Below the pieces are notes generated by a model. It did not search any database. It was not told the origin of the DNA and saw only the letters and a program-made list of their open reading frames with translations. DNA of 64,000 bases. It comes from Eledone cirrhosa (taxonomy: Eukaryota). Below, in pieces: positions 6,253 to 64,000 of this stretch (the first letter of the stretch is position 1; each line of letters starts with the position of its first letter). Location: contig OZ024741.1 in the NCBI GenBank assembly GCA_964016885.1, forward strand, positions 141,856,001 to 141,920,000, in the 5' to 3' direction. The position numbers were made by a program, and so were the translations under genes.

Positions 6253-6384
<132 letters not shown>

Positions 6385-38487: not shown

Positions 38488-40546
38488 CAAATGGGCATTT
38501 CTGCGTGTAAAAAAAAAGAAAAACAGAGGATGTAACAAAAAAGAAACAATTAAATATTCCCCAATAGGGGGGAGTCTTGCGAGGCACATTCGTGGTGAAA
38601 GCTCATTAAAAAAGCCTCGGTGACCCTGACCGCCAGGGCAAGTGCCCTCTGCCAGTTTTCCAACTTTAATTTACAGGCACATTTTGTTGTTTTGTTTTGT
38701 TTGTGTTTGTTGTGGGTTTGTTTCTGTTTCGCTTTTTGGTGACTTTTGTGGTGTAGGTCATGGTGGTGTTAGGGTTAATGATGGTGATGGTGTTGGTGTT
38801 TGTGGTGATGGGGTTGGTGATGCTGGTGTGGATGGTGGCATGTCTGTCCTAACTTTTTTGTTTGATAGTTTATTTGTTTCCCTCTGTATTTTGTTTTTGG
38901 AGTGGGAAGGAAGAGAATTTTTTGGGGGGGTTTCTTTTTTTCTTTTTTCCTGATACCGTTTCCCACTCCTCGTCGTCACAATCTTTCTCCAGTTGTGATA
39001 GGCCGGGGAGTGGAAAATCCTCCACAGGTGTTAGTTTTGGTTGTGGCGTGGTGGATGGTCTAGGCGCTGGTGCTAGTTCTGAAGCGTTGGGTGGTGGTGG
39101 TGTTGGTTTTGCTACTGTTGCTGGGGTTGTTGCTGTTACATGTGCTTCTGTTGTTGTTGCTACAGTTGTTGCTGTCATCTCTTCTGCTGGTGGTGCTGAT
39201 GGTTGAGTCACTGGGGTGGGTAGGAGAGGTGGCCTCAACCTTTTAGCCTGAGGGCAGAAAGCCCTTAGGTGGGTTCCTTCACCACAAATGACACACCTAG
39301 GCCTTCTGCCCTCGACAATTATGGTGAGGTGGCTGCCGTCAGTGAGGTCTATTACCTCTGGGATCTCCTCAATGCTTTTTTGGTCCGCTTGGATCAGGAG
39401 CTCCATCCCAGATCCGGACCAGTTCTCCTGCTTTTCTTTCGCTATTTCGATTATCTTGGTGTTGGCTTCAATGCCGGCGAGGACGGCAGCTATTAGCCAG
39501 GGAATTTCGATGGCCGGTGGAACGTGGGTCACCCTGATCTTTACGAGTCTCTGGCCACAATAGCTTGGGACGAGTATGAAGTCGTCACTTCTTAATGGGG
39601 CCATGGAGTGTTCTCTAGCCTCCTCTGGTGTTTCAAAGAAAACGTCCACGGTTCCATACTTCTGCCCACGTCTGATGTGGGTTTTTTTTGCCCACACATG
39701 TCCCAAAGCTTTTTGGATTTGGGACTCGGATGCCCGTTCCAGTCGGCGCAATTTTACATTAATTGTTCGATAAGACACAGTGCATAGGCGCCGATGCTCC
39801 ATTTTATTAGGTGGAGGGGGGGCTAACCCTGTACCCATCTTTCTTTACCATTTTTTTGTCTTCTAATTCCTCCTGAGTTACCTGAAATGCTTCGCACTGT
39901 TTTGCTACTCTGGCAAAACTCAGGGTGGTTTTCTTAATGTCATTGTTGCTGTTGTTGTTATCGTTATTTTTGTTATTATTAATTTTAGTTTCAGTTGTGG
40001 TGGTGGTGGCGTCAGTGGTGTTCGGTGTGGAAGAGTTCATTTTGGTTGAATTCATTTCGACATCACGAGTTAATTTATTTTTTCTTTTGTTTCTGTTGTT
40101 GCGGTGGTGGTGGGGGTGGTGGTTGTCGTGGCGGTGGTGGTGGCGGCGGCTTTAACACCTGCAGTCATTGGTAATGGCGGGAAATGAATGTCTGCCTGAG
40201 ACAAATTTAAAATATTGCTACTGCATATATTTTTAGTGTTGGCAAACGTAGTAATATTTACAATGCTGGTGTCGGTGTGAGGTGTTAGTTTGTGAGGAAG
40301 GCTCTCAGTTGCTTGGTGCAGAGGTGAGTTAGCTATGATTTTTTCAAAGAAATTTTTTGATAATAATAAAAGTTTAAATTTTGGGCACAAGGCCCCAATC
40401 TTTTGGGGTGTCCTTTTCAGATAACAATGTATGTGCACTTATATAAAGTTAACAATAAAAATTTTCCATAAATGCCAATTTTAAATAACTGAAAAAAACA
40501 AACCTTTGCGGAGCTCACGATGATACGATTTACTACGTAGGTCGCC
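38488..40546 (-). mobile_element. ORF1-only Tx1 derivative (HAL1-like half-LINE)
   Basis: 5' end abuts (AAT)n. The frameshifted ORF1 runs straight into ATGTGCCTGTAA and a Tx1-A-type 3' UTR at ~38680. No ORF2. Confidence 0.85.
38870..39838 (-). pseudogene. ORF1 core (RRM-like plus CCHC knuckle) of the half-LINE
   Basis: GQKYGTVDVFFETPEEA and CVICGEGTHLRAFC; homologous to 44332-46422. Upstream parts lie in other frames (39807-40055, 40070-40438). Confidence 0.85.
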
Positions 40547-40607
<61 letters not shown>

Positions 40608-40614
40608 TAATAAT
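40547..40614. repeat. (AAT)n spacer / target
   Basis: Same-polarity tracts also at 46636-46654, 50515-50565, 51461-51478, 57298-57321 and 60249-60299. Confidence 0.98.
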
Positions 40615-40876
40615 GATTTCTTTATTAACCACAAGGGTTTACATAAAGTAGACATTAAGGACAGTGCAGGACAATGCAGGACGGTACAAATGGGCATTTC
40701 TGCGTGTAAAAAAACAAAAACAGAGGATGTAACAAAAATAACAATGAAAATAACAATGAAAAATTCCCCAATAGGGGGGAGACTTCGGAGGGACATTTGT
40801 GGAGAAAGCCCAGTAAAAAGCCACAATGACCCTGACCACCAAGGCAAGTGCCCTCTCCCAGTTTTCCACCTTTAAT

Positions 40877-43800
40877 TTACAGATATATGCTCAGAGTAGG
40901 CCCATTCACTCGGGCCATTCTTGCTTCTCTCACCCATCTTTCAACAAAATGCTGGGAAGAGAGCACTTCCCTCTCTACTCTGATTTTCCTTTTCAAATGA
41001 AATTTGAAAAAGTCAATCAGAGCATCACCGAAGAGGTAAGTGCTCGTCTTCAGCCCTTTCAAACGTGTCCACCATACTATCTCTTTCGCCATGGCCACCA
41101 GGCAGATAAAAACTGCCTGCCCTTCCCGGCTAAAGGAGGAGGGCGGGGCAATCCTCACGATGGACTCAGATGATAGCCGGATCCGTCCTAAACGCGACAG
41201 CAGGTGTTCGACATAAACCCACAAGTCAGCAATTTTCGGACACTGGACGAGTGCGTGCAGGACGGTTTCGTCGCCCTGCGCGCATCTCGGACATGCCCGG
41301 CTGACGGCACCTCCATGTCTGTAGAGTTTATCCCGAACTGGCAAGGCTCCTCGGTAGCACTGCCAGGCCAGAGATTTCTGGAAGTTGTCCATAGGCCCTG
41401 GCCCGAAAGTTCTTCCGAAGAGATTGGCTAGTTGATTTTCGTCGACGCCTAGAGTTTCCCCAAGTACGTCGTCGCTCTTCCCCTCCACTAATCCTCTATA
41501 GAACGCCGAGGTGGAGTTTCCACCGATCACATTGCCCGATTGGTCGAGGGCTGTGAGCGCCTGAAGACATTCCAGTCTCCAGGCGCTCCCTCTCGGTCTT
41601 CGCTTGACCCAGGACTGCAGCTCCGTCAAGGAAACGAGCTGGGGAAACACGCGTCTAGCAAACGGTGACCACACCTGATCACCGTCGAGGAAGAGGTGGA
41701 GATGTCGTAGCCTGAGCGCGTGCCTGCGCATCATCAGCCACGGCATGCCCAGCCCTCCACGTAGCGGGTGTTGACAACAGATGGACCGCCTGACCATCGG
41801 AGCGCGTCCCTTCCACAAAAAGCGAAAGAGCAAACGCTCCAGCACAGTCAGGCGAGGCTTAGGACAAGGTACGACGGTCAGGCGGTAGCAGATGACGGAC
41901 GCGATGTACGCGTTAGCCACCTCCGCTCGACCTTTCAGGGATAGCTTCCTCTCGGCCCATTTCTGGGTGAGAGAAGCCACCCTGCTCGTCACCTCGTCCC
42001 AGTTTTTGTCCGTCTGGAGGTCCGGACCGAACCAGACCCCTAGCAATTTAACCGGTCCGTCCGTCCAGCGTCCGACGACGCTGTTGGACGGCATGGACCT
42101 GCCTCTCCAGGTGCCGAGCTGCAGGCCCACTGACTTTTCCTGGTTGATCATTGCTCCTGTCACCGCTTCGTATTCTCTTAGTGTAGTGCCGATCGCCTCG
42201 ATGTGTTTGGCGTTCGACACCACTACGGTGACATCGTCCGCATATGCTGATACGGATCTTCCGCATCCTAGTTCGCGCGGGGCCCCCCTCAACGTCTCCA
42301 GTTTGTGCAGTAATGGCTCGAGAGTCAATACGTACAAGAGGGACGAGAGGGGACATCCTTGGCGGACCGAGCGCATGATGTTGAACGGTTCCGACAGGTG
42401 ACCTTTCACTCTCACCACAGAGCAGATGTCGCTGTGCATGGCAGCGATCCAGCCTCTGAAGACGGGCCCAAAGCCAGCCGCCCTCAGGACTGCCGCTAGG
42501 TAACGATGGTCGACCCTATCGAAAGCTTTCGACTGATCTAAATTGATCAAGGACCCACCCGTGCCAGGTTCCCTAGCTACCCTCTCTACGATGTATCGCA
42601 TGAGGTGGAGGTTGTCGTGGATGGATCTGTCGGGAATGGCGCATGTCTGCGCCTCTCCCACCAGGCCACCAACGACAAGCGCCAACCTCTTTGCTAGCAC
42701 CTTGGCCAAAATCTTAAACTCTGTGTTTAGCAGAGTTATGGGCCGGAAATTATCTATGTTATCCCCCTTGTTCGGATCCTTTCTCAGCAGTGCCACCGCT
42801 CCTCGGCTCACAGAACTGGGAATTCTCCCGTTCTGTTGCCAGTTGCAGTAGACGTCCGCCAAGAGGCCTCCGAACAAGTCTGGCATCTGTACGTAAAGTT
42901 CATAGGGCAGACCATCCAAACCAGGCGATTTACCCCTTGTGCAGCCAGTCATTGCCTCCCTTACTTCAGCGGCTGTTATCGGCTTTTCGCAACACTTCGC
43001 CTCAGTGGCCGAGAGCCGCGGCAGTCCGTCGAGGTAGACACTAAAGTCCATCCCTCTACCCGGCCCCCCGCTGCCCCCGAACAGCTGAGCGAAGTGTCGC
43101 TGAAAAGCTTCACACATTTGCCCGGGATCGAGTAGCATGCGCCCGTCGTGGTCCACCAAAGACCGGATCGTGGCTTTGTTGCCACGACGCGCCTCCGCCA
43201 CTCGGGCCCATTGAACGGCTTTCGTCCCCTCGTGTCTGAGAGCACGCACCCTTGCTCTGACAATGCAGCCTTCGTGCTTTGCATTGAAGAATTGGTCAAG
43301 GGCCAATTTCGCCGCAAGCACGTCGGTCGCAATGCCTTTGCTAAGCGCCTCGTCTAATTTTCTAACTAGTTCTCCCTCTGCTCTATTTTTCTCTATTGCT
43401 AAAGCCTTACTAAACCTAATCGATTCTATTCTAATCGCTCTTTTCAGAGCAAACCACCACTTGTTGTTGACGATGGCCCCCGTCAACGCCCGCTTAACTA
43501 GTTCGCTAATCCGGTCTCTGTAGGCCTTGCGCGCTGGTAAGGACGCGTTTAGCTTCCAGTAGCCGGGTCCTCGTCTATGAAGCCTATCTAAGTCAAGCAC
43601 ACAGGTCACGAATTTGTGGTCCGTGTAGCTGACTATCTTGAATTGTGGACAGCCTATGCTAGACCTATCTATTTCCCTACAAAATACTCTATCTAGATAT
43701 GATCTGGATGACCCTATGCGGTTTGTCCAAGTCCACATTGGCACATTCGGGAAATCCAATCGGTACCTGTCAGACAGTTCAAAACGCCTGAGCAGGTTGG

Positions 43801-44296
43801 TGAGGCTCTTGCACCCTCCACCCCTATCCGCTAATCCCACACAGTCCCAGCGTGCATCTAAGATCCCGTTCCAGTCGCCCACTAACACTAAAGAGCGGGA
43901 CGTTCCAAGAAAGGTCTCCAGACGCCGGAAGAAATCAGGCCGCCCTGCTCCTGTCGGGGCATAGACGGCCACTAGCCTGAAAGCTTGCCCGTCTCCGCTG
44001 GTCACGTCCAGCACCACCAGCTTACCCTCTGGGTCCAGGAAGATGGCCCGTATGGCGAGATCCAAACCTCTCCTAAAAAGCACAGCAACTCCTCCACCCG
44101 ATCCAGGACGGCTGGGAGATGCGTACACATCGTAGCCGCCGAAGATCGGTGCGAAGGCCCGTGCTTCGGAGATTCTGGTCTCGCTGATGGCCACTACATC
44201 TATGTTTAGTGACCTGAGGTCGTTGAGCAGGTGACCCTGCTTCCATGACGACCCCAAGCCACGCGCATTTATGCTGCCTATTCTGAGTGAGGTCAT
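40877..44296 (-). CDS. ORF2: APE endonuclease, reverse transcriptase and CCHC (1139 aa)
   Basis: SINARGL, ISET, GDWN, SYLDRVF, YTDH; KSPGLDG, FRPITLLN, DQSKAFD, QGCPLS, YADD; CPRC..H..C. Confidence 0.97.
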   Translation of the reverse strand: MTSLRIGSINARGLGSSWKQGHLLNDLRSLNIDVVAISETRISEARAFAPIFGGYDVYASPSRPGSGGGVAVLFRRGLDLAIRAIFLDPEGKLVVLDVTSGDGQAFRLVAVYAPTGAGRPDFFRRLETFLGTSRSLVLVGDWNGILDARWDCVGLADRGGGCKSLTNLLRRFELSDRYRLDFPNVPMWTWTNRIGSSRSYLDRVFCREIDRSSIGCPQFKIVSYTDHKFVTCVLDLDRLHRRGPGYWKLNASLPARKAYRDRISELVKRALTGAIVNNKWWFALKRAIRIESIRFSKALAIEKNRAEGELVRKLDEALSKGIATDVLAAKLALDQFFNAKHEGCIVRARVRALRHEGTKAVQWARVAEARRGNKATIRSLVDHDGRMLLDPGQMCEAFQRHFAQLFGGSGGPGRGMDFSVYLDGLPRLSATEAKCCEKPITAAEVREAMTGCTRGKSPGLDGLPYELYVQMPDLFGGLLADVYCNWQQNGRIPSSVSRGAVALLRKDPNKGDNIDNFRPITLLNTEFKILAKVLAKRLALVVGGLVGEAQTCAIPDRSIHDNLHLMRYIVERVAREPGTGGSLINLDQSKAFDRVDHRYLAAVLRAAGFGPVFRGWIAAMHSDICSVVRVKGHLSEPFNIMRSVRQGCPLSSLLYVLTLEPLLHKLETLRGAPRELGCGRSVSAYADDVTVVVSNAKHIEAIGTTLREYEAVTGAMINQEKSVGLQLGTWRGRSMPSNSVVGRWTDGPVKLLGVWFGPDLQTDKNWDEVTSRVASLTQKWAERKLSLKGRAEVANAYIASVICYRLTVVPCPKPRLTVLERLLFRFLWKGRAPMVRRSICCQHPLRGGLGMPWLMMRRHALRLRHLHLFLDGDQVWSPFARRVFPQLVSLTELQSWVKRRPRGSAWRLECLQALTALDQSGNVIGGNSTSAFYRGLVEGKSDDVLGETLGVDENQLANLFGRTFGPGPMDNFQKSLAWQCYRGALPVRDKLYRHGGAVSRACPRCAQGDETVLHALVQCPKIADLWVYVEHLLSRLGRIRLSSESIVRIAPPSSFSREGQAVFICLVAMAKEIVWWTRLKGLKTSTYLFGDALIDFFKFHLKRKIRVEREVLSSQHFVERWVREARMARVNGPTLSIYL

Positions 44297-44331
44297 GTTT
44301 AAAATAGAGTGGAAAAGATGGGAAAGACCAC

Positions 44332-46422
44332 TTACCGTACTTTTGGTAGAGGAGGGATGGTTTTTACATCCCTTTTCACTTGATCGTCTGGTGAAGGGAC
44401 CGTTGAATCGTCCCTTCGGCTGGTCGTCGGCTCTTCTAAGAGAATGTCTGAATATACTCTTCGATTGATGGTTCCTCCTAGGTCCCTGAAATCACCAACT
44501 GCGTTGGGGAATTTCGTTTTAATGTTTCTGTATTGTTTCTGTGCTATTTTTAGCAGTCTTATGTTAGTTGGCGTTTTGATTGGTGCTGGTATTATGTAGT
44601 CCTGTTGTGAAATGTCTGTGTGTTCAATTATGTAAGTCATTAGTTTCTTGTTGTGTGTGTTTATTGCCGTGCATTTGTTTTTCTGGGGGTGGGGTGTGGT
44701 TCTGCTATTTTCTTGTCGTTGTTGCTGGGTGTGTGTGTTTTGTTGTTGTGTTTGCGATGTTGGTGCTTGTGGTGGTGGTGTTGAAGGTGTTGTTGGCGGT
44801 GGGGTTGTCGCCGGTGGTGATGGTGGTGCTGGTGTGGGTGGTGATGGTGTTGGTGGTGTTGCTGCTGTGGGTCTCTTTGCAGTAGACTTTACCCTTTTCT
44901 CATTTCTTTCCTCCCTTTTCAAAGGCGACGATGCGCTGCTTCTGCGTTTGTGCCTTCTTGCGACCTTTTGCCATCCCTCTCCCACCTCACACTCCATGTC
45001 TGATTCTGTAAGGTCGGGGAGGGGTACCAGCTCCACTCTTTCACTTGTTGGTGATGTTTGCACTGGAGTCTCTGTTGCAGCTGCATTTGGTATTGCTGTT
45101 GTTGTTGTTAATATTTCCACTGCTGCTGCTGTCTTTGATTTCCGTGGAGTGGGTATGGGTGCCACGGACCTATCGTTCCTGGTTGCCGCTTGTCCTGTTG
45201 CTGGTAGCCGTGGAGCCGGATTCGGAAGGAGGGGGGTTTTCTCCTTTCTCAGGGTCTTCTCGTTGCAGAAGGCCCTGAGGTGAGTCTTCGATCCACAGCG
45301 AAAGCATTTCGGGCGTTTGCCCTCAACACTTATGGGCAGTTGAGTGCCGTTATCGAAGTCTATCACATCCGGGATAGCTTCGATGCACTCCTGGTTGGTT
45401 TGGATTAGCATCTCAATGGAGGAGCCGACCCAATCTTCTCTTACTTTTTTCTGTACTTGCAGTACAGTTGTTTTGTCCTCGATTCCGACGAGGACAGACG
45501 CGGCCAGCCAAGAAGGGGTCATTCCGGGGGGGACGTGGGTCAGTTTGACCCTCACAATTTTTTGCCCGCAGTAGGAGGGCACCAACACCATTTCCTCGCT
45601 CCTTAGGGTCACTACTGATTGGGCCTTTGCCTCCTGGGGTGTGGCAAAAAGTACGTCTACGGTGGCGTATTTTTTGCCTCGGGTGATGTGCGTTTTCCTC
45701 TGCCACACAGACCCCAAGGCTTTTTGTATTTGGGCCTCTGTGGCTCTTTCCACCCTACGGGATTTTGTACTTACTGTACGGTACGTGACCGTACAGTGCT
45801 CTTGGGTTTCGAAAAAATTTTTCGCTGCCTTGCAGATTGCTCGGTGTCCGTTCTTTGTCACCATCTTCTTCGCTTCCTCTAATTCCTCATTTGTTATGAG
45901 GATTGTTTCCAAGTTTTTCGCAATACCTGCAAATGAGATTGGTTTTTCTCTGCTGTTGTTGTTGTCGTCAGAGCTGCTGGTACTTTTGTTGTTGCTGCAG
46001 GTACTACGACTACTGCCTCCGCCGCTGTTGCTGTGGTTGTTGTTGGTGTTGCTGCTGCTAATGCTGTTGTTCTTTATGCTGCTGGTGATGCTGTTGCGGC
46101 TGCTACTGTTGTTTTCATTGTCACTGTTGCTGTTGTTATTACGGCTGCTACTGCTATTATTCCTGACGTCAGACGAATGAACTGGGTTTTCGTATTTCCC
46201 GCACACCTGTTTCGTCGCTGTCGTCGTCGTCGTGGAGAAACCTTGCACGCTTTGCACGAGACTTTTCTTTTCTTTCGTCGCTTGCGAAAGAGAAGGGAGG
46301 GAGAGAGACACATTTAAAGAAGGGAGGGAGAGAGACAATCTTCTCTCTGCTGTAGTGATGATTGAGGAAGAAGAAGACGGAATGAGTGGGAGTGACGTAT
46401 GAAATTTCTTTTTCGTAGCCAT
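44332..46422 (-). CDS. ORF1: Gag-like RNA-binding protein (RRM-like plus CCHC)
   Basis: Likely start aaaacATGG (MATKKK). CFRCGSKTHLRAFC knuckle, S/N-rich N-terminus and P/T-rich C-terminus. Confidence 0.92.
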   Translation of the reverse strand: MATKKKFHTSLPLIPSSSSSIITTAERRLSLSLPSLNVSLSLPSLSQATKEKKSLVQSVQGFSTTTTTATKQVCGKYENPVHSSDVRNNSSSSRNNNSNSDNENNSSSRNSITSSIKNNSISSSNTNNNHSNSGGGSSRSTCSNNKSTSSSDDNNNSREKPISFAGIAKNLETILITNEELEEAKKMVTKNGHRAICKAAKNFFETQEHCTVTYRTVSTKSRRVERATEAQIQKALGSVWQRKTHITRGKKYATVDVLFATPQEAKAQSVVTLRSEEMVLVPSYCGQKIVRVKLTHVPPGMTPSWLAASVLVGIEDKTTVLQVQKKVREDWVGSSIEMLIQTNQECIEAIPDVIDFDNGTQLPISVEGKRPKCFRCGSKTHLRAFCNEKTLRKEKTPLLPNPAPRLPATGQAATRNDRSVAPIPTPRKSKTAAAVEILTTTTAIPNAAATETPVQTSPTSERVELVPLPDLTESDMECEVGEGWQKVARRHKRRSSASSPLKREERNEKRVKSTAKRPTAATPPTPSPPTPAPPSPPATTPPPTTPSTPPPQAPTSQTQQQNTHTQQQRQENSRTTPHPQKNKCTAINTHNKKLMTYIIEHTDISQQDYIIPAPIKTPTNIRLLKIAQKQYRNIKTKFPNAVGDFRDLGGTINRRVYSDILLEEPTTSRRDDSTVPSPDDQVKRDVKTIPPLPKVR

Positions 46423-46654
46423 GTTTTTTTGTTTAAAATGAAATTTTGGGTACAAAACCCCAATAACTGGTTATTTAACCCCGAAGGGCCAAATAACGGA
46501 CAGAAAGACCCCTCTCACGAGGAGGAGGGTGTCTTTATCAACAATTTGGTTCAAGTTTTAAACAATTTACAATTGTTTTAACGGTTAAAAATTACTATAC
46601 CTTACAGAGCCGAGCCTCCGTCAACCATGGCATTCAATAATAATAATAATAATA

Positions 46655-49600
46655 AAAAAAAAAAAAAATAAATAAAAAAAAACGAGAAAAACAAACAGAG
46701 AAAAACAAAAACAAAAAAAGAAACCCCAAAAACGTAAAGAAAATAAGAATGAAGAGAGAAGCAGGCGGACGGACAGAGAAGAGGGGGGAAAAAGTAAAAC
46801 TTAAAAAACAAAAACTAAGTCAGACATTCGAATACTACATTACAGTGAAACTTATGCTTATTCATTTTTGGGGCCCTTTCTGCCCGTGTGTTTGTTTGTT
46901 TATGTGTGTCCGTATACAGCGTGGTGATAATGCCACACAAGGGCCAAGTGGGATGGCGGATCCACAGATGGCTATGTAAACATACGTTCGCCAATCCTCG
47001 ATAAGAGTGTTTAAATATCGAACATAAACAGTTCGAATAACGGTGAAATGGAGACTAGAACGTCATGTGACAGACTCTCACCCAACAGGTGCCCCCTGGC
47101 TCAGCAGCAGGAACCTGACTGTCAACCAAATACTGCTGATGTTGGAGGAAGAAGAAGAAGGAAAGGGGCCAGAACCAACTGGACGAAAGAATTGAATAGA
47201 ACTGTTATGCAATGCTACCTGAAAAGTAACCCCAAGGAGAGGGGCTACAGGAGACGGATGCATAACATCTGGAACGAGATTGGTTTATTTAAATTAGATG
47301 AACAAAAATTGGCCGGGCAGGCTCGGGTAATAAGAACTAATGGGTGGATAAGCGAGCTGGAACTGGAGGAACTGAGCAGAGAGAATGGCTTGGAGATGGC
47401 GGGTGTAGTATGCCAGACAAGCGAGCCGGCGGGAAATGAAGGTGAGGAGGTCCTGAGAACGGAGGAACCACCCGAAGCAGACAATGATCTGAATACTGAG
47501 ATAAATAATACCTGGAACAGAGATACGGCCACTGAGGAGATGAATGCTGACGGGCTAGGACAAGATTCGGTTGACATCCTAAATTTAGTGGTAGATGAGT
47601 TGAACAATGATAGTGGGAGACCTATGAACCTAAGATTTGTAGACAGGAAAAAGTTAAAAGAAACAACAGCTAAGGTAAACAAAGTCATCCCATACCTTGA
47701 GGCGAGGAGTCTTCACCAGTGCAACAATATCCTCAAAGCAACAGCAAATACGGTGAGGAAACTACTTGGTATAAAAGCGAGAGGAAACAACAGACAAGAA
47801 AGAGCAGAGCCGTGGTGGAAGAAGCGACTGAGTGGGCAAATCGGGGAAATGAGAAATGACATAGGAAAGCTTGAGTCACTGCTGAATGGGACACTAAAAA
47901 ACATAGGCACTAAAAATAGACTGGAAATAAAATACAAAACTAGGAGTAAAAAGCTAAATATTATCATAGAGGAATTGAAGCAACGCATTGTAGCAAAGAG
48001 TGCCAAAATCAGGCGATACGAGAACAGAGTCAGTCAGTATAAACAGAACCGCATGTTCGACAACAACCAGAAGATGCTGTTTGGACAGCTTGAGGGGAAA
48101 GAAAGAGGCAACGACTTGATCCCTGGGGCGGAACAAGCTAAAACATTCTGGAGAGGAATATGGGAGCAGGATGTTAGACACAATGCCCAGGCAGGGTGGA
48201 TTGAGACAGTACAGAGGGAGATCGGTGAGCAGGCACAACAACAGACTGATTTGAGTATCACAGTTAAAACTCTTAAGGGGCAAGCCAAAAAACTAACCAA
48301 CTGGAAATCACCAGGCCCAGATGGTGTGCAGGGGTATTGGATTAAACATTTAACATCCCTCCACCCGAAGCTGACGGCCATGTTCAATGACTGCTTGGTG
48401 TCGGGTGAGGTGCCAGAGTGGTTGACAAAAGGTACCACAGTTCTGATAATGAAAGACCGAAGCAAGGGTAATGATGTTACCAACTATAGACCTATCACAT
48501 GTCTGCCCGTAATGTGGAAACTGTTGACGAGCATTGTGTCTGAGGAAATCTACCATCACCTCCACACAAACAACTTGTTACCGGACGAACAGAAACGATG
48601 CAGAAAGAAGTCACGTGGTACAAAGGACCAGTTGCTTATTGATAAGATGGTAATGGGGAATTGCAGGAGGAGACACACTGATCTTGCCATGGGATGGATA
48701 GACTACAGAAAGGCATTTGACATGGTGCCTCATTCCTGGATCACCAAAAGCCTGGAGATCTTCAGGGTGGCAGATAACATCAGACAGTTGCTGGGCAGGA
48801 GTATGGGGTCCTGGGAGACAGAGTTGACATCAACTGGAGTATCCTTGGGAAGCGTGAAGATCAAGAGAGGTATCTTCCAGGGAGATAGCCTGTCCCCTCT
48901 GTTGTTTGTCCTTGCCCTGATGCCCTTGACCATTATGCTGCGAAAAGTGAGAGCAGGATACAAGTTGGGAAGGGGAGAGCTTACCATCAATCACCTCCTC
49001 TTCATGGACGATCTTAAGCTCTTCGGGAAAAGTGAGAAGGAGTTGGATGTGCTTGTTGACACTGTCCGTATTTTCAGCAGTGATATATGTATGCAGTTTG
49101 GTATTGGTAAATGTGGAGTCATTGTGATGAGGAGGGGTAGGTTGAGCAGAAGTAACGGGATCCAGATACCAACAGGTGAGATGATAAAGGAAATTGACTC
49201 TGAGGAAGGATACAAGTATTTGGGCGTTCTGGAGGCTGATGGCATAAAGAACAAAAAAATGAAGGAATTGTTAAGAACTGAATACATTCGGAGAGTAAGG
49301 AGCGTATTGAAGTCACATCTGAACAGCAGAAATGCCATAAGCGCAGTAAATTCCCGAGCTGTGTCTATTATTAGGTACAGTGCGGGAATTCTGAGATGGA
49401 ATGTTGCTGAACAAAAAGAAATGGATAGGAAGACTAGGAAGCTATTGACTATCTACAACATGTTCCACAAGAGGAGTGATGTCGATAGACTCTACCTAAG
49501 GAGATCTGAGGGTGGAAGAGGTCTTATCAGCATAGAGGACTGTGTTCAGATGGAGAAAAACAACCTATACAAATACGTGACCTATAGTAAGGAGCCAATG

Positions 49601-50513
49601 CTCAGAGCTGTACTGAAGGAGGGGACAGTAGGCCAGGGGATATCCGAGGAGGAAATAACATCAAGGAGGAAGAGCAGCCTTAAGGGAAAATCCCTTCATA
49701 GTACCTTCTTTGAGAAAACTGAATTTAGAGATCCACAGACATGGAACTGGTTGAGAAGAGGAGACCTCAAAAAGGCTACAGAAGGAATGCTAATGGCTGC
49801 GCAGGAGCAGGCCCTCAAAACGAAGTGGTTGAAGCACCATATCTACAAGGAGGAGGCTAGCCCACTGTGCAGGATCTGTGGAGAGAGAGAGGAGACTGTG
49901 GCCCACATTGTGTCCGAGTGTAAACACCTAGCCCAGACCCACTATAAGGGCTGGAGACACGATGTGATGGGCAGGGTGATCTACTGGCACCTGTGCAAAG
50001 TAAACAATCTACCACATTCTGAGAAATGGTATGAGCATAGGCCAGAGGCGGTGATGGAGAACAGTCAGGTGAAGGTGCTGTGGGATTTTAGGATACAGAC
50101 GGACAAAAATCTGGAACACAATAGACCTGACCTGGTGGTTGTGGACAAAGAAAAAAGATCGTGCCTGATTGTGGATGTGGCCTGCCCGTTCGACACGAGA
50201 GTGCAAGAGAAGGAGAGGGAGAAAATTAACCGATACCAGGACCTAAAGTGGGAGGTGAAAAGGATTTGGAACTGCCATGAAGTCAAAGTGATCCCGATTG
50301 TCATAGGCGCACTGGGGACTATCTCCAAAGGTTTCCAGGGATGGTTAAAGAAAATCGGCCCCTTCACGCTTTTTGGAACGCTTCAAAAGGCATGCTTGCT
50401 TGGAACGGCAAGAACCCTCCGATACGTCCTGAATATCTGAGGCTGCAGGTAGTGGCTTGATATTCAATCCAACGGACTTTCCAGTTAACCAACATCAATG
50501 ACTGAGATTCAAG

Positions 50514-50514: not shown

Positions 50515-50565
<51 letters not shown>

Positions 50566-50566
<1 letters not shown>

Positions 50567-51460: not shown

Positions 51461-51478
51461 AATAATAATAATAATAAT

Positions 51479-54400: not shown

Positions 54401-57297
54401 CGCGTTTTATCTAGGGCGACCATACAGATCACAAACTTGTGATCTGAATAGGTGACCGTTTCAAAACGTGGACAGCTTACACTATTTCTGTCTATTTTCC
54501 TAATGAATATCCTGTCTATATACGATCTAGATGACCCTATGCGGTTAGCCCAGATCCACACTGGCGTATTAGGGAAATCCAGTCGGTACCTGTCAGACAG
54601 CTGGAACTGGCTGATCAGGTTCTTGAGGCTTTTGCACCCCCCCGCTCCTATCGGATACTCCCACACAGTCCCAGCGTGCGTCTAAGATGCCGTTCCAGTC
54701 CCCCGCTAACAGTAAAGGGCAAGACGTACCCAGAAAGGCTTCCAGGCGTCTAAAGAAGTCCGGCCGTCCTGCCCAAGTAGGAGCATAGACGGCCACCAGT
54801 CTAAAGGCACCACCTTCATTATTGTTCACGTCCAGGACCACCAACTTCCCGTCCGGGTCCCGGAAGATCGACCTTACCTCGAGATCCAGGCCTTTCCTAA
54901 ACAGCACTCCCACCCCGCCTCCCATTCCCGGCCGGCGAACAGATGCAAAGATCTGATAGTCGTCGAAAATGGAGGCTAGTGCGCGCGTGTCGGAAATCCT
55001 GGTCTCGCTGACTGCAATTACATCCATTTCTATAGACCTGAGGTCGTTGAGCAGGTGACCCTGCTTCCAGGACGATCCCAGGCCTCGAACATTTAAACAT
55101 CCTACTCTTAATACGGCCATGTTGACAGGTTAAACAGAGAGAGAGGAAGGTTTACTTACCTTCCGGGCTCTTGTGAAGGTCGGGTTTCTTTTGGGAACCC
55201 CTTTAAAAGTCTTGAAGTGGGTTTTACGTTCGGGGTTCCCACGTCCCGAAGAAAGCTGTCTCGTATTTCTTTGAATATGTCGAGCGACATTCGTACCAGA
55301 ACCAAATCTTCCGGCACGCGAAATGTGCTCGATTTAAAAATTTCCCCCTCTTTTTGTATATTTTCACTTCGTGCTACGAGGGCCATCAGTTCCTTGTTGG
55401 CCCTCCTGACGAGCACGAAGTTTTGTATGTTTTGTTGGTGTGATTTTATTTGTTTGCGTGGCTGTGGTGGTGATGGTTTTGGTGGTGTTGTTTCGGTTGT
55501 ATCTGTGTTTGTTGTGAGTGCGGTGTCTGTGGTTTCAGATGTTTGTGTGTATATTTGTTCTTGCGTCTGTTTCGGTTGTTTGCGTTTGGGGGATTCGGGG
55601 GATTCTGGTGGTGTTGACGTTGGTGTTATTGGAGAGATGTTTGCGTGGGTGGTGTCTGCGTTTCTTATTGTGGGTGCTTTTGTGCTTTGTTGAGTTTTTT
55701 TGTTTTTTTTGTGTTTCCTTTTTTGTATTTTGGGGGATTTGGGATTTTCCTCATTTTCACTACTGTAGATGAGGGGTCTGTGTCTGTAAGTGTGTCTGTA
55801 TGTATATTTATGGTTTTATTGGTGTATGTATTTTGGGGGGGAGGGGAATTTGACAGCTTTCCTCGTTTCTCCCCTGGGTGGTCAATGTTCGTGGTGTTCT
55901 TTCTATTTGTGTTGTTGGTGGTGGTTTTGCCGGTGCTGGTGTTGGTTGTGGTCCTCGCCCCGGCGTCGGCAGCAGTGGAGCCTTTCGACCCCTTGCCTCT
56001 TTCAGCAGTTGAGGGCAGAAGGCTCGCAAATGGGTTTTTTCCCACAAACAAAACACTGCGGCCTTTTGCCTTCGGTCATAATGTGAATGACGGTCCCATT
56101 CTGAATGCGGATATGGTCCGGGATTGTCTTCACATTCTCGGGCCTGATCTGGAGAAGGATCTCCAGGTCAACCCCGGACCAGTCCTCTCTGGCCGTTCTG
56201 GTCACTTCTATAGGGACTGTATCCGTCCCCTCCACAATCACACATCCCAGAAGCCACCACATGTCAAGTCCTGGTGGGATTCTGGGAATGCGGAGACGAG
56301 CCGTTCTTTTTCCCATGTGGGAGGGGTACATTATGACCTTGCTGGTTTTACAAGGAGTCATAGCGTGTTTCATAGCGAGGGCTTCTGATTTGAACAACAC
56401 CCTAATGGTGCCGTACTGTCTGCCCCTCTCTATGTACTGGGTGTCTTCTCTGATGCACCTCAGCGCGACTTCGACATCTTCTTGTGGGATTAAAGCTGCC
56501 CTTTTGGTTTGTGCTGAGATGGATCTATAATGCACCGTTTTGCGCTCCACTGCCTCAATAGCTTCTACCGGGACAGTTAAGTTGGCCCAAGTTTGCTCTT
56601 GCTTGATGAGCTTCCATGCCTGGGCCAACTTTTCATCTTTGTTTGAGAGGTCCATGTTGAAGCATGGCCTCTTTTTTGCTGCTACCGCAGCGAAAGTGTT
56701 CTTCTTGTTGTCGTTGGGGGTGTTGATGTCGTTGTTCTTGTTAGTGTTGTTGTTAGCACTGTCACTGCTATCATTGTTGTCTTTGTTGCCACCGTTGTTC
56801 TCGGTGCAGTTGGTATTGTTGCTGTTGGTGTTGTCGCTATTTGTTTCATGTTAGTGGTGTGTGATATTGTTGTATTTGTTATTTTTTTTTTTTGTTATCT
56901 GTATTTTCGTTGTCGCTGTTACTGTCATTTTTTTCAAAATTAGTGTTCTTATTGGTATCATTGGTGTCTTTGTTTACCTTGTTTGTGGTGGTGTTTGTGT
57001 TATCAATGTGTGTTAATTTCGCTGTAGCGCTCCTCTCAACTTCTACGTCGTTGTCGCACGACAGCAGACATATCGCTGGGGGGCGTGGTTCAGCCATGTT
57101 TTTTTTTCTTCGTAAATTTTTTAACATGTAAAAAAAGTTCAAATATTTGGGCCAAAAGACCCAAATATTATACTTTCCCCTCACGGGGCAAAGTATAAGG
57201 GCTTATATCCCTTACACAGAAATATTTAACAACAAATAATTTTAACAGGCAAATAAAGCGACTTACTGTGAGCGAGCAAAATACGTCCGCTTAGAAC
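51479..57297 (-). mobile_element. Full-length but frameshifted Tx1 LINE, family B
   Basis: ORF2 pieces at 54593-55120, 53542-54666, 52958-53440, 52467-52856 and 51756-52500. ORF1 pieces at 55156-57098 (CFVCGK..HLRAFC). (AAT)n at both ends. Confidence 0.95.
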
Positions 57298-57321
57298 AAT
57301 AATAATAATAATAATAATAAT

Positions 57322-60248
57322 ATCCTAAACTTAGTGGTAGATGAATTGAACAATGATAGTGGGAAACCTATGAAGCTAAGATTTGTAGACAGGAAAAAGT
57401 TAAAAGAAACAATAGCTAAGGTAAACAAAGTCATCCCATACCTTGAGGCGAGGAGTCTTCACCAGTGCAACAATATCCTCAAAGCAACAGCAAATGTGGT
57501 GAGGAAATTACTTGGCATAAAAGCGAGAGGAAACAACAAACAAGAAAGATCAGAACCTTGGTGGAAGAAAAGACGGAATGATCAAATCAGGGAAATGAGA
57601 AATGACATTGGAAAGCTTGAGTCCCTACTGAATGGGACACTACAAAACAGACACTAAAAATAGACTGGAAATAAAGTACAAAACTAGGAGGAAAAAACTA
57701 AATATTATCATAGAGGAACTGAAGCAACGCATTGTAGCAAAGAGTGCAAAAATTAGGCGATACGAGAGCAGAGTCAGTCAGTATAGACAGAACCGCATGT
57801 TTGACAACAACCAGAAGATGTTGTTTGGACAGCTTGAAGGGAAAGAAAGAGGCAATGACTTGATCCCTGAGGCGGAACAAACTAAGACATTCTGGAGAGG
57901 AATATGGGAGCAGGATGTTAAACATAATGACCAGGCAGTGTGGATTGAGACAGTACAGAAGGAGATTAGTGAACAGGCACACCAACAAACTGATTTGAGT
58001 ATCACAGTTGAAACTCTTAAGGGGCAGGCCAAAAAACTAACCAACTGGAAATCACCAGGCCCAGATGGTGTGCAGGGGTATTGGATTAAAAGTATAACAT
58101 CCCTCCACCCGAAACTGACAACCATGTTCAATGACTGCTTGATGTCAGGTGAGGTACCAGAGTGGTTGACAAAAGGTACCACAGTTCTGGTAATGAAAGA
58201 CCGAATCAAGGGTAATGATGTTACCAACTATAGACCTATCACATGTCTGTCCGTAATGTGGAAACTGTTGACAAGCATTATGTCTGAGGAAATCTACCAT
58301 CACCTCCACACAAACAACTTGTTACCGGACGAACAGAAAGGATGCCGAAAGAAGTCCCGTGGTACAAAGGACCAGTTACTTATTGATAAGATGGTAATGA
58401 GGAATTGCAAGAGGAGACACACTGGTCTTGCCATGGGATGGATAGACTACAAAAAGGCATTTGACATGGTGCCTCATTCTTGGATCACCAAAAGCCTAGA
58501 TATCTTCAAGGTGGCAGATAACATCAGACAGTTGTTGGGCAAAAGTATGAAGTCCTGGAAAACAGAGTTAACATCAGCTGGAGAATCCTTGGGAGGCGTG
58601 AAGATCAAGAGAGGTATCTTCCAGGGAGATAGTCTGTCCCCTCTGTTGTTTGTCCTTGCCCTGATGCCCCTGACCATTATACTGCGAAAAGTGAGAGCAG
58701 GATACAAGTTGGGCAAGGGAGAGCTTACCATCAATCACCTCCTCTTCATGGACTATCTTAAGGTCTTCGGGAAGAGTGAGGAGTTGGATGTGCTTGTTGA
58801 CACTGTCTGTATTTTCAGCAATGATATATGTATGCAATTTGGTATTAGTAAGTGTGGAGTCCTTGTGATGAAGAGGGGTAAATTGAGCAGAAGCAACGGA
58901 ATCCAGGTACCAACAGGTGAGATGATAAAGGAAATTGACACTGAAGAAGGATACAAGTATTTGGGTGTTCTGGAGGCTGATGACATCAAGAACAAAAAAA
59001 TGAAGGAATTGATGAGATCTGAATACATTCGGAGAATAAGGAGCGTATTAAAGTCACATCTGAACAGTAGGAATGCCATAAGTGCAGTAAATTCCCGAGC
59101 TGTGTCTATTATTAGGTACAGTGCGGGAATTCTGAGATGGAATGTTGCTGAACAAAAAGAAATGGATAGGAAGACTAGGAAGCTATTGACTACAACATGT
59201 TCCACAAGAGGATTGATGTCGATAGACTCTACTTAAGGAGATCTGAAGGTGGAAGAGGTCTTATCAGCATAGAGGACTGTGTTCAGATGGAGAAAAACAA
59301 CCTACACAAATACGTGACTGATAGTAATGAGCCAATGCTCAGAATTGTACTGAAGGAGAGGACAATAGACCAGGGGATGTCCAAGGAGTAAATAACAACA
59401 AGGAGAAAGAGCAGCCTTCGTGAAAAATCCCTTCATAGTACCTTCTTTGAGAAAACTGAATTCAGAGATCCACAGACATGGAACTGGTTGAAAAGAGGAG
59501 ACCTTAAAACGTCTAGAGAAGGAATGTTAATGGCTGCGCAAGAGCAGGCCCTCAAAACGAAGTGGTTGAAATTTACAAGGATGAGGCTAGCCCACTGTGC
59601 AGGATCTGTGGAGAGAGAGAGGAGACTGTGGCTCACATTGTATCGAAGTGTAAACACCTAGCCCAGATTCACTATAAGGGCTGGAGACACGATGTGATGG
59701 GCAGGGTGATCCACTGGCACCTATGCAAAGCAAACAATTTACCACATTCTGAGAAGTGGTATGAGCATAATTCAGAGTCGGTGATAGAAAACGATCAGGT
59801 GAAGGTGCTGTGGGATTTTAGGATACAGACGGACAAGAAACTGGAACACAATAGACCTGACCTGGTGGTTTTGGACAAGGAAAAAAGATCGTGCCTGATT
59901 GTGGATGTAGCCTGTCCATTCGACACGAGAGTGCAAGAGAAGGAGAGGGAGAAAATATTAACCGATACCAGGACTTAAAGTGGGAGGTAAAAAGGATTTG
60001 GAACTGCCATGAAGTCAAAGTGGTCCCGATTGTCATAGGCGCACTAGGTACTATCTCAAAAGGTTTCCAGGGATGGTTAAAGAAAATTGGCCCCGCCCTG
60101 CTTTTTGGAACGCTTCAAAAGGCATGCTTGCTGGGAACAGCAAGAACCCTCCGATACGTCCTAAATATCTGAGGCTGCAGGTAGTGGCTTGATATTCATT
60201 TGAACAAACTTTCCAGTTAACTAACATCAATGACTGAGACTCAAAAGC
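57322..60248 (+). mobile_element. 5'-truncated, frameshifted Dong family-1 copy
   Basis: Colinear with 47576-50514. FMDD has become FMDY; several frameshifts. Confidence 0.95.
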
Positions 60249-60295
<47 letters not shown>

Positions 60296-60299
60296 TAAT

Positions 60300-63200
60300 G
60301 ATTTCTTTATTAACCACAAGGGTTTACATAAAGTAGACATTAAGGACAGTGCAGGACAATGCAGGACGGTACAAATGGGCATTTCTGCGTGTAAAAAACA
60401 AAAACAGAGGATGTAACAAAAAATACCAATGAAAAATTCCCCAATAGGGGGCAGACTTCGGAGGGACATTTGTGGAGAAAGCCCAGTAAAAAGCCACAAT
60501 GACCCTGACCACCAAGGCAAGTGCCCTCTCCCAGTTTTCCACCTTTAATTTACAGATATATGCTCAGAGTAGGCCCATTCACTCGGGCCATTCTTGCTTC
60601 TCTCACCCATCTTTCAACAAAATGCTGGGAAGAGAGCACTTCCCTCTCTACTCTGATTTTCCTTTTCAAATGAAATTTGAAAAAGTCAATCAGAGCATCA
60701 CCGAAGAGGTAAGTGCTCGTCTTCAGCCCTTTCAAACGTGTCCACCATACTATCTCTTTCGCCATGGCCACCAGACAGATAAAAACTGCCTGCCCTTCCC
60801 GGCTAAAGGAGGAGGGCGGGGCAATCCTCACGATGGACTCAGATGATAGCCGGATCCGTCCTAAACGCGACAGCAGGTGTTCGACATAAACCCACAAGTC
60901 AGCAATTTTCGGACACTGGACGAGTGCGTGCAGGACGGTTTCCTCGCCCTGCGCGCATCTCGGACATGCCCGGCTGACGGCACCTCCATGCCTGTAGAGT
61001 TTATCCCGAACTGGCAAGGCTCCTCGGTAGCACTGCCAGGCCAGAGATTTCTGGAAGTTGTCCATAGGCCCTGGCCCGAAAGTTCTTCCGAAGAGATTGG
61101 CTAGTTGATTTTCGTCGACGCCTAGAGTTTCCCCAAGTACGTCGTCGCTCTTCCCCTCCACTAATCCTCTATAGAACGCCGAGGTGGAGTTTCCACCGAT
61201 CACATTGCCCGATTGGTCGAGGGCTGTGAGCGCCTGAAGACATTCCAGTCTCCAGGCGCTCCCTCTCGGTCTTCGCTTGACCCAGGACTGCAGCTCCGTC
61301 AAGGAAACGAGCTGGGGAAATACCTGTCTAGCAAACGGCGACCACACCTGATCACCGTCGAGGAAGAGGTGGAGATGTCGTAGCCTGAGCGCGTGCCTGC
61401 GCATCATCAGCCACGGCATGCCCAGCCCTCCACGTAGCGGGTGTTGACAACAGATGGACCGCCTGACCATCGGAGCGCGTCCCTTCCACAAAAAGCGAAA
61501 GAGCAAACGCTCCAGCGCAGTCAGGCGAGGCTTAGGACAAGGTACGACGGTCAGGCGGTAGCAGATGACGGACGGGATGTACGCGTTAGCCACCTCCGCT
61601 CGACCTTTCAGGGATAGCTTCCTTTCGGCCCATTTCTGGGTAAGAGAAGCCACCCTGCTCGTCACCTCGTCCCAGTTTTTGTCCGTCTGGAGGTCCGGAC
61701 CGAAGCAGACCCCTAGCAATTTACCGGTCCGTCCGTCCAGCGTCCGACGACGCTGTTGGACGGCATGGACCTGCCTCTCCAGGTGCCGAGCTGCAGGCCC
61801 ACTGACTTTTCCTGGTTGATCATTGCTCCTGTCACCGCTTCGTATTCTCTTAGTGTAGTGCCGATCGCCTCGATGTGTTTGGCGCTCGACACCACTACGG
61901 TGACATCGTCCGCATATGCTGACACTGATCTTCCGCATCCTAGTTCGCGCGGGACTCCCCTCAACGTCTCCAGTTTGTGCAGTAATGGCTCGAGAGTCAA
62001 TACGTACAAGAGGGACGAGAGGGGACATCCTTGGCGGACCGAGCGCATGATGTTGAACGGTTCCGACAGGTGACCGTTCACTCTCACCACAGAGCAGATG
62101 TCGCTGTGCATGGCAGCGATCCAGCCTCTGAAGACGGGCCCAAAGCCAGCCGCCCTCAGGACGGCCGCTAGGTAACGATGGTCTACCCTATCGAAAGCTT
62201 TCGACTGATCTAAATTGATCAAGGACCCACCCGTGCCAGGTTCCTTAGCTACCCTCTCTATGATGTATCGCATGAGGTGGAGGTTGTCGTGGATGGATCT
62301 GTCGGGAATGGCGCATGTCTGCGCCTCTCCCACCAGACCACCAACGACAAGCGCCAACCTCTTTGCTAGCACCTTGGCCAAAATCTTGAACTCTGTGTTT
62401 AGCAGAGTTATGGGCCGGAAATTATCTATGTTATCCCCCTTGTTCGGATCCTTTCTCAGCAGTGCCACCGCTCCTCGGCTCACAGAACTGGGAATTCTCC
62501 CGTTCTGTTGCCAGTTGCAGTAGACGTCCGCCAAGAGGCCTCCGAACAAGTCTGGCATCTGTACGTAAAGTTCATAGGGCAGACCATCCAAACCAGGCGA
62601 TTTACCCCTTGTGCAGCCAGTCATTGCCTCCCTTACTTCAGCGGCTGTTATCGGCTTTTCGCAACACTTCGCCTCAGTGGCCGAGAGCCGTGGCAGTCCG
62701 TCGAGGTAGACACTAAAGTCCATCCGTCTACCCGGCCCACCGCTGCCCCCGAACAGCTGAGCGAAGTGTCGCTGAAAAGCTTCACACATTAGCCCGGGAT
62801 CGAATAGCATGCGCCCGTCGTGGTCCATCAAAGACCGGATCGTGGCTTTGTTGCCACGACGCGCCTCCGCCACTCGGGCCCATTGAACGGCTTTCGTCCC
62901 CTCGTGTCTGAGAGCACGCACCCTTGCTCTGACAACGCAGCCTTCGTGCTTTGCATTGAAGAATTGGTCAAGGGCCAATTTCGCCGCAAGCACGTCGGTC
63001 GCAATGCCTTTGCTAAGCGCCTCGTCTAATTTTCTAACTAGTTCTCCCTCTGCTCTATTTTTCTCTATTGCTAAAGACTTACTAAACCTAATCGATTCTA
63101 TTCTAATCGCTCTTTTCAGAGCAAACCACCACTTGTTGTTGACGATGGCCCCCGTCAACGCCCGCTTAACTAGTTCGCTAATCCGGTCTCTGTAGGCCTT

Positions 63201-64000
63201 GCGCGCTGGTAAGGACGCGTTTAGCTTCCAGTAGCCGGGTCCTCGTCTATGAAGCCTATCTAAGTCAAGCACACAGATCACGAATTTGTGGTCCGTGTAG
63301 CTGACTATCTTGAATTGTGGACAGCCTATGCTAGACCTATCTATTTCCCTACAAAATACTCTATCTAGATATGATCTGGATGACCCTATGCGGTTTGTCC
63401 AAGTCCACATTGGCACATTCGGGAAATCCAATCGGTACCTGTCAGACAGTTCAAAACGCCTGAGCAGGTTGGTGAGGCTCTTGCACCCTCCACCCCTATC
63501 CGCTAATCCCACACAGTCCCAGCGTGCATCTAAGATCCCGTTCCAGTCGCCCACTAACACTAAAGAGCGGGACGTTCCAAGAAAGGTCTCCAGACGCCGG
63601 AAGAAATCAGGCCGCCCTGCTCCTGTCGGGGCATAGACGGCCACTAGCCTGAAAGCTTGCCCGTCTCCGCTGGTCACGTCCAGCACCACCAGCTTACCCT
63701 CTGGGTCCAGGAAGATGGCCCGTATGGCGAGATCCAAACCTCTCCGAAAAAGCACAGCAACTCCTCCACCCGATCCAGGACGGCTGGGAGATGCGTACAC
63801 ATCGTAGCCGCCGAAGATCGGTGTGAAGGCCCGTGCTTCGGAGATTCTGGTCTCGCTGATGGCCACTACATCTATGTTTAGTGACCTGAGGTCGTTGAGC
63901 AGGTGACCCTGCTTCCATGACGACCCCAAGCCACGCGCATTTATGCTGCCTATTCTGAGTGAGGTCATGTTTAAAATAGAGTGGAAAAGATGTGAAAGAC
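60300..64000 (-). mobile_element. Tx1 family A copy (ORF2 60550-63968, 1-bp deletion near 61722), continuing beyond the window
   Basis: Near-identical to 40615-44328; ttaaccggt to ttaccggt splits ORF2. Confidence 0.96.

Follow-up and report, generated by a model that had tools for sequence, protein, structure and literature searches.

Tx1-like (APE-type) and R4/Dong-type (RLE-type) retrotransposons of Eledone cirrhosa occupy (AAT)n microsatellites in fixed and mutually opposite orientations, an opposite-strand rule that holds genome-wide for copies numbering in the thousands. We consider it likely that the two types nick and prime from different strands of the repeat, and that arrays of these elements are built by serial insertion. 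In the window (the whole 64,000-nucleotide stretch analyzed here), a chain of seven non-LTR retrotransposons, joined through six (AAT)n tracts of a single polarity, runs from 38487 to 64000; the four Tx1-like copies are all on the minus strand and the three R4/Dong-type copies are all on the plus strand. The initial annotation had described these elements, junctions, and orientations correctly. Its description of (AAT)n as the only intervening sequence is accurate for all six tracts, except that two of them (40547–40614 and 60249–60299) are interrupted; its placement of the array also stands, but the array continues to ∼72,700 and comprises nine LINEs, and the leftmost element has no ORF2, tail, or left tract.

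That element (E1; 38487–40546, minus strand) consists of a Tx1C head and ORF1 fused to the 3′ UTR, with ORF2 deleted and the last ∼70 nt and tail missing; no (AAT)n is present at the left edge (38487), and an Rfam search of the left flank returned no match. Its head is joined to the tail of the next Tx1 element through (AAT)18 and interrupted units (40547–40614; this and all following tracts are on the plus strand). The second element (E2; 40615–46635, minus) is a full-length Tx1A copy with ORF1 at 46422–44335 and ORF2 at 44296–40880, followed at a head-to-head junction by (AAT)6 (46636–46653), which is the tail of neither neighbor. Next is an R4-type DongA copy (E3; 46654–50514, plus), which has one open ORF (47048–50437), lacks at least ∼90 nt of the 5′ UTR, and meets with its tail, across (AAT)17 (50515–50565), the truncated head of an R4B copy (E4; 50566–51460, plus) reduced to the CCHC-RLE end and the 3′ UTR. 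The (AAT)6 at 51461–51478 forms a tail-to-tail junction with a full-length, frameshifted Tx1B copy (E5; 51479–57297, minus), the ORF2 of which has 75% DNA identity to that of E2, and (AAT)8 (57298–57321) forms a head-to-head junction with a 5′-truncated, decayed DongA copy (E6; 57322–60248, plus; 92.6% identity to E3). Finally, (AAT)14 with interrupted units (60249–60299) lies at a tail-to-tail junction with a second Tx1A copy (E7; 60300–64000 in the window, minus), which is full length to 66323, has 98.6% identity to E2, and carries one ORF2 frameshift. Outside the array, a full-length Tx1C copy extends into the window with its 3′ portion (1–1872, plus); it has an (ATT)n tail (1873–1916) and a head ∼4 kb left of the window, directly after (ATT)8, in agreement at both ends with the claim that this copy obeys the same rule.

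Beyond 66323, the order is (AAT)5, an R4B copy (plus), (AAT)7, a SINE fragment (minus), (AAT)3, and a third, older R4-type copy (plus) that finishes near 72,700, for a total of ∼34 kb. The four Tx1-like copies in the window array represent three families (A, B, and C) and the three RLE copies two (DongA and R4B, which share 31–48% amino-acid identity); the nine LINEs of the whole array belong to six families with differing truncation points and staggered ages, and identity to the nearest copy ranges from 93% to 99.8% among the array elements. The 3′ end of the SINE folds differently from the 3′ stem-loop of Tx1A and Tx1B, and we do not claim it as a partner of Tx1.

A separate ORF1 with a CCHC knuckle is a feature of Tx1 elements. 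The ORF1 of E2 (696 aa) has such a knuckle (CX2CX4HX4C, residues 373–386) and no Pfam match, and it resembles RNA-binding clusters of the CCHC and ZCCHC3 types (scores 0.90–0.93); a literature search for ZCCHC3 together with Tx1 found no paper. ORF2 (1139 aa) encodes APE, RT, and CCHC domains with catalytic motifs present, and has Pfam matches to Exo_endo_phos, RVT_1, and zf-RVT. The order of its domains (N-terminal APE, RT, and C-terminal CCHC) fits the Tx1 clade of the L1 group, and its best solved relative is human L1 ORF2 (E 3e-51). In a quick RT tree of 40 rows, which held no named Tx1, Kibi, Koshi, or Keno reference, E2 falls beside an Argonauta protein and unnamed relatives at 42–46% identity; we infer Tx1 clade membership for these families. 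Over the first 336 nt of E2, each of the 40 scored matches shows 100% identity. Metagenome contigs were scanned for a 44% relative in order to learn its target, and none was found.

The single ORF of E3 (1130 aa) has the R4/Dong architecture, with an RT followed by a CCHC motif and a PD-(D/E)xK restriction-like endonuclease; the motifs FMDD, CRIC-HIVSEC, RHD, RPD, and VDVACP are all present. Its best solved relatives are R2 proteins, it has no Pfam match to Exo_endo_phos (i.e., no APE), and no named reference element occurs among the 120 homologs listed. An HDV-like ribozyme has been reported at the 5′ end of R4/Dong elements (PMC3774820); E3 lacks the true 5′ end. An exact 31-base pattern from the DongA 3′ end has 4,030 matches in the genome, and 24 of the first 30 DongA tails on C1 start with an AAC variant unit, and the tail is therefore inherited.

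The flanks and polarity of these elements were observed directly across the genome. Heads of Tx1A lie directly after (ATT)3 in 2,323 of 2,403 copies (97%) and those of Tx1C in 2,387 of 2,584 (92%), so that full-length Tx1-like heads meet the repeat in one fixed phase in 92–97% of copies; non-repeat 5′ flanks, which the initial annotation would have counted against its proposal had most Tx1 copies shown them, are confined to a minority. Tx1-like heads number ∼54% of tails (4,987 vs. 9,314), a high full-length share. Distinct junctions were also counted in 220 fetched loci, which were picked by element ends, several from the same arrays, so that the counts are not independent; as background, the chance that a 15-nt flank is scored ATT is 0.2% per position in the window outside the array, and the chance of AAT is the same. 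In this census, ATT adjoins 128 of 129 full Tx1 heads and 150 of 162 Tx1 tails, and the 43 truncated Tx1 heads comprise 17 on ATT, 2 on CTT, 1 on AAT, and 23 others that have no repeat under the scoring rule, some but not all of which are explained by later deletions or insertions. The (CTT)n flank is found at none of the 129 full heads. AAT adjoins 67 of 81 truncated R4 heads (DongA 36/47, R4B 31/34) and nearly all R4 tails (DongA 77/79, R4B 23/24), and no R4 end in the census lies on ATT. DongA and R4B insert into (TAA)n with the repeat on their sense strand, the polarity of Bombyx mori Dong. Five full-length DongA heads scored as "other," since the DongA sequence in the library does not reach the true 5′ end.

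Across single tracts in the 220 loci, Tx1–R4 pairs are opposite in 102 of 103 cases (one is in the same direction) and like pairs are always parallel (Tx1–Tx1 54/54, R4–R4 18/18; 72/72 together), and genome-wide we count 379 tail-to-tail junctions and none of the tested parallel tail-to-head type; orientation is accordingly far from random. Head-to-head junctions bear repeat that belongs to neither tail, both in the window (46636 and 57298) and in 50 cases in the 220 loci. Among the first 30 long tracts on C1, 15 adjoin one of these LINEs, 13 of them on both sides.

A few Tx1-like copies are flanked by target-site duplications, visible as the same interrupted repeat left and right of the element: at L032 (18 nt), L174 (16 nt), L154 (11 nt), and L069 (19 nt), and at L066 and L169 over 40 nt, the longest length searched; these elements therefore inserted into repeat that was already there. 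Informative duplications are few (∼7 of 118 Tx1-like copies for which both ends are present, 0 of 45 R4 copies); pure tracts cannot reveal any, and most automatic calls were discarded as trivial pure-repeat matches. Together with the head-to-head repeat, they support the earlier proposal of insertion into a pre-existing microsatellite. For its notion of a growing landing pad, which we also regard as likely, the rise in median tract length, from 34.5 nt at head-to-head to 47 nt at tail-to-tail junctions (220 loci), is weak and borderline (p = 0.056). No empty-site allele was seen.

In the mechanism that we favor, each type probably nicks and primes from a different repeat strand: Tx1-like RNA ending in (AUU)n would be primed where the (AAT)n strand is nicked, and R4 RNA ending in (AAU)n from the (ATT)n strand. 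We infer that the endonucleases would be the source of target specificity. Arrays likely grow by repeated insertion into the repeat left behind by earlier insertions; one insertion would turn a tract into two and add a duplication or tail, so that more targets would be found where elements already sit. The (ATT)n tails of SINEs may seed some arrays.

It is rather unlikely that RNA–DNA pairing is the main determinant, with a 3′ (AUU)n on the Tx1-like transcript, and perhaps a 5′ one, annealing to select sites for a loosely specific endonuclease. The fixed phase of full-length heads alongside repeat at just 17 of 43 truncated heads, the high full-length share, the location of some Tx1-like copies in (ACT)n, (CTT)n, or other repeats, and the published description of SART1 RNA pairing with its target (PMC7265360) are consistent with it. 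However, truncated copies, which are unable to bring a 5′ repeat from the RNA, are ∼200-fold enriched for it with a strand bias of 17 to 1, and the duplicated interrupted flanks differ by locus. Pairing of this kind is compatible with endonuclease-based targeting.

We give practically no credence to the absence of targeting, in which repeats would be templated tails only and elements would build up passively in gene-poor regions; repeat tails in both groups, the inherited DongA tails, and the repeat-rich region accord with such passive build-up, but it predicts no strand rule and is already contradicted by the repeat at the 50 head-to-head junctions and by the truncated R4 heads after (AAT)n (67/81). 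Misassembly, or tandem duplication with unequal crossover, is a highly improbable origin for the array: six families with differing truncation points and ages argue against it, as do the same junction types at hundreds of other places, despite the similarity of E2 and E7 (98.6%) and the possibility that L066 is a tandem duplication. In a comparison of reads and contigs with 50600–60200, all of the families occur in four runs and none of the pieces bridges the locus-specific junctions, which is compatible with misassembly. No RNA data set was listed as containing the sequence, a result with no bearing on expression.

Each part of this arrangement has published precedents, including the convergence of APE and RLE elements on a shared site and insertion in opposite directions within a single repeat. 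If the sense strand is used to name both, the (ATT)n target of the Tx1-like elements presumably differs by one base from the Koshi unit. Like the elements here, those of Kibi, Koshi, and crocodilian Tx1 families are APE-type and insert in microsatellites, namely (TC)n, (TTC)n, (TTCC)n, and (TTTC)n (PMC4494074); here the target is (ATT)n, rather than (TC)n or (TTC)n, and the host is a cephalopod. Dong (R4 clade; Bombyx, Anopheles, and the snail Biomphalaria) targets TAA repeats (PMC3812793), and in B. mori it sits after (TAA)n on its own sense strand (PMC3774820), a polarity shared by DongA and R4B; in contrast to Dong, three divergent R4 families here occupy shared arrays, interleaved with APE elements. 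Keno (Tx1, APE) and Utopia (RLE) are likewise two lineages with different endonucleases that arrived in parallel at the same U2 snRNA gene site (PMC4640811), but they share a 3′ flank in an RNA gene and hence an orientation, whereas the elements here are opposed in a dispersed, self-regenerated microsatellite. TRAS1 and SART1 also insert within one simple repeat, (TTAGG)n, in opposite directions, and the endonuclease is the chief factor in this (PMC7265360); they belong to a single group of APE elements and are restricted to telomeres, in contrast to the differing folds and the arrays along chromosomes described here. In agreement with the initial annotation, which knew of no TTA-specific Tx1 lineage co-nesting with Dong, our literature search found neither an (ATT)n-targeting Tx1 lineage nor its pairing with Dong/R4.

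Dong-R4 elements are reported as recently active in Octopus vulgaris, in a study whose main text maps cephalopod hotspots without explanation, presents no target analysis, and does not use the word "target" (PMC13282606). These findings offer, at the level of sequence, a reason why LINEs cluster in a cephalopod genome. We suggest, tentatively, that an undescribed and still-active Tx1-type lineage, mostly full-length and with an APE retuned to (ATT)n, may form with Dong/R4 and an (ATT)n-tailed SINE a mutual, target-regenerating community that occupies about half of all long (AAT)n tracts and gives rise to cephalopod hotspots. The two types bring together, in nature, endonuclease folds that are unrelated and that act on opposite strands of the same three-base repeat; each type has copies that are intact and very young, and whether the enzyme or RNA pairing sets microsatellite specificity is therefore directly testable. 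The large proportion of full-length copies among the Tx1-like elements is also relevant to the formation of 5′ junctions and to site-specific gene delivery.

The window (G000:C2:141856001-141920000, within a 3.0-Gb assembly) carries, at 38487-64000, the end-to-end chain described in the initial annotation, in which seven elements (E1 to E7, left to right) lie with six (AAT)n tracts between them, all of one polarity. The three Dong-type elements placed on the plus strand are indeed RT-CCHC-RLE elements (E3, at 46654-50514, E4, and E6; R4 elements hereafter, of our families DongA and R4B). Of the four Tx1-type elements placed on the minus strand, E2 (40615-46635), E5, and E7 have the APE-RT-CCHC layout, and E1 proved to be an ORF2-less derivative of that group, whose families carry our labels Tx1A (E2, E7), Tx1B (E5), and Tx1C (E1). 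RT is the sole domain common to the APE-type and RLE-type proteins (27% identity). Both ORFs of E2 are open, with the full set of APE and RT motifs, as is the single ORF of E3. E7 extends past the window to 66323, and the chain continues rightward through an R4B copy (+) with (AAT)n on both sides, a fragmentary SINE (-), and an R4-type copy (+) that is older and reaches ~72,700, the latter two likewise separated by (AAT)n; the whole array spans ~34 kb, with nine LINEs drawn from six families. Against their closest fetched copies, E1 is 93%, E5 95%, E3 99.5%, and E2 99.8% identical, a spread that fits serial insertion over time.

About 70 nt are lacking at the left end of E1, where no tract adjoins, and a short stretch matching the Tx1 3' UTR lies at that junction, which suggests that a microhomology deletion removed the element's tail and tract. 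This edge (38380-38495) adjoins sequence resembling a tRNA-derived SINE; an Rfam search of the flank returned no match. Elsewhere in the window, two long pure (AAG)n tracts (2494-2721 and 10536-10875) are each followed by a copy of one ~200-nt repeat (83% alike), and long inverted repeats at 5035-6258 (94%), 15613-15942 (94%), and 34075-34285 (92%) are possibly foldback or MITE-like elements.

The opposite-strand arrangement on (AAT)n is real for both groups and extends genome-wide, as seen in exact-pattern counts and in a census of distinct junctions at 220 loci (element matches of at least 85% identity; flanks with at least 12 of 15 bases fitting the repeat, slack of at most 6 nt), which were selected on element ends; many come from the beginning of contig C1, and some from common arrays. 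Against a background of 0.2% per polarity, ATT adjoined 128/129 full Tx1 heads (5' ends) and 150 Tx1 tails (3' ends; 1 AAT, 11 other), and AAT adjoined 77/79 DongA tails (AAG in 2/79) and 23/24 R4B tails. Truncated heads followed suit in DongA (36 AAT, 1 AAG, 10 other), R4B (31 AAT, 1 AAG, 2 other), and less uniformly Tx1 (17 ATT, 2 CTT, 1 AAT, 23 other). Across one tract, Tx1 and R4 copies were opposite in 102/103 cases, and Tx1-Tx1 (54/54) and R4-R4 (18/18) pairs were parallel. By exact pattern, 2,323 of 2,403 Tx1A heads and 2,387 of 2,584 Tx1C heads directly follow (ATT)3, and the repeat precedes all 30 fetched Tx1A heads, with both tract length and the sequence beyond varying. The shared Tx1 tail has 9,314 matches, heads amounting to ~54% of tails, a rough figure because the two patterns differ in sensitivity; a single DongA tail variant has 4,030. 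Genome-wide, a DongA tail faces a Tx1 tail 15-45 nt away in 379 cases and a parallel Tx1A head in none, and of the first 30 copies on C1 located by a DongA tail, 14 have the 5' junction in view, 12 of them directly after (AAT)n. A few copies of both groups lie in (AAG)n/(CTT)n, a single Tx1A lies in (ACT)n, and a truncated Tx1A follows two CCCTAA units (L162, L165, L095, L190, L154, and L181); such copies hint at relaxed specificity, and part of the (CTT)n flanks may be R4B heads read in reverse.

The alternative raised at the outset, that (ATT)n is only a templated tail, is not borne out, because the repeat occurs at head-to-head junctions (window 46636 and 57298, and 50 among census pairs), before truncated heads, and as interrupted tracts duplicated on either side of Tx1-like copies, three results that show a target present before insertion. 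The duplicated tracts flank Tx1-like copies in L032, L174, L154, L069, L066, and L169, in the last taking in the first 8 nt of the adjoining element's head; L192 is ambiguous. Informative duplications number ~7 in the 118 Tx1-like copies that have both ends and 0 in the 45 R4 copies. Counting against a clean picture, the repeat is absent at 23 of 43 truncated Tx1-like heads; several are of other subfamilies or were disrupted afterward by R4 insertions or deletions, a partial account, and two do have the repeat, missed by the scoring rule. Tails are partly templated as well, since an AAC variant unit opens 24/30 DongA tails, and it also occurs in most of 100 listed DongA-Tx1 tail junctions. The data leave room for a repeat carried at the RNA 5' end, as full-length heads lie in fixed phase and the full-length share is high, but truncated heads have no means of bringing such a repeat. 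By the established scheme of target-primed reverse transcription, priming of an (AUU)n-ending RNA requires a 3' end on the (AAT)n strand, and that of an (AAU)n-ending RNA a 3' end on the (ATT)n strand. The Tx1-like and R4 groups would thus use opposite strands of the repeat, a choice that either the endonuclease or RNA pairing may set.

Growth of arrays at sites of earlier insertions is well supported, and a net lengthening of the repeat by each insertion is plausible. A one-phase pattern for tracts of at least 7 units has 33,393 matches; among the first 30 on C1, 15 adjoin these LINEs (13 on both sides, several from one array), 5 adjoin only the (ATT)n-tailed SINE described below, and 10 neither. 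Tracts measure 34.5 nt head-head, 42 nt head-tail, and 47 nt tail-tail, a weak rise (p = 0.056 between extremes). A further repeat family ending in (ATT)n hosts these insertions in L221, L242, and L248 and lies upstream of Tx1 heads in L005, L173, and L175.

The Tx1-like copies are putatively placed in the Tx1 clade by their domain layout, since the tree included no named reference sequences; the R4 copies show those Dong features that were tested. Among named proteins, the closest to E2 comes from Argonauta hians (74% identity), which makes an octopod host very likely, and a large sister group comprising unnamed proteins (P0002-P0084, some clusters of hundreds) is 39-53% identical to E2 ORF2. 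Tx1A and Tx1C are alike in ORF2 and at the 3' end (~94%) and differ in 5' UTR and ORF1 (L063:4015-9870 versus window 40615-46635), which suggests a 5' swap. One abundant SINE, whose tail is (ATT)n (L061:7349-7519, minus strand; window 11356-11546, 12658-13082, 17147-17338, and 35256-35447), is parallel to Tx1-like copies at 14/16 junctions, the other two being a single place, and opposite to R4 at 8/8. Its last ~30 nt are similar to the Tx1B 3' end, (ATT)n precedes 7/14 of its heads, and folding of its 3' end did not form the Tx1-like stem-loop; a Tx1-like family may mobilize it.

Every ingredient has a precedent. Dong targets TAA repeats, in a snail included (PMC3812793), with a known polarity (PMC3774820) that matches the R4 copies here, and the Tx1-clade Kibi, Koshi, and crocodilian families target TC, TTC, TTCC, and TTTC repeats (PMC4494074); Dong and Kibi/Koshi resemble our R4 and Tx1-like elements, respectively, in mode of working. 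Keno (Tx1, APE) and Utopia (RLE) reach one U2 site in parallel (PMC4640811), and TRAS1 and SART1 insert into (TTAGG)n in opposite directions (PMC7265360). Dong-R4 and L1-Tx1 are abundant or recently active in octopus annotations, the available text of which holds no target analysis for them (PMC13282606; PMC8967140); that of PMC4758252 and PMC8869645 adds nothing to the comparison. Our search, which covered literature outside Repbase, found neither an (ATT)n-specific Tx1 lineage nor Tx1-Dong co-nesting, and further Tx1 targets in Figure 3 and the supplements of PMC4494074 may bear on novelty. Two features, a Tx1-like lineage specific for (ATT)n and its pairing with Dong on opposite strands in arrays that are dispersed and growing, appear to be undescribed in the literature searched, and the co-nesting pattern itself is real, genome-wide, and mechanistically coherent.
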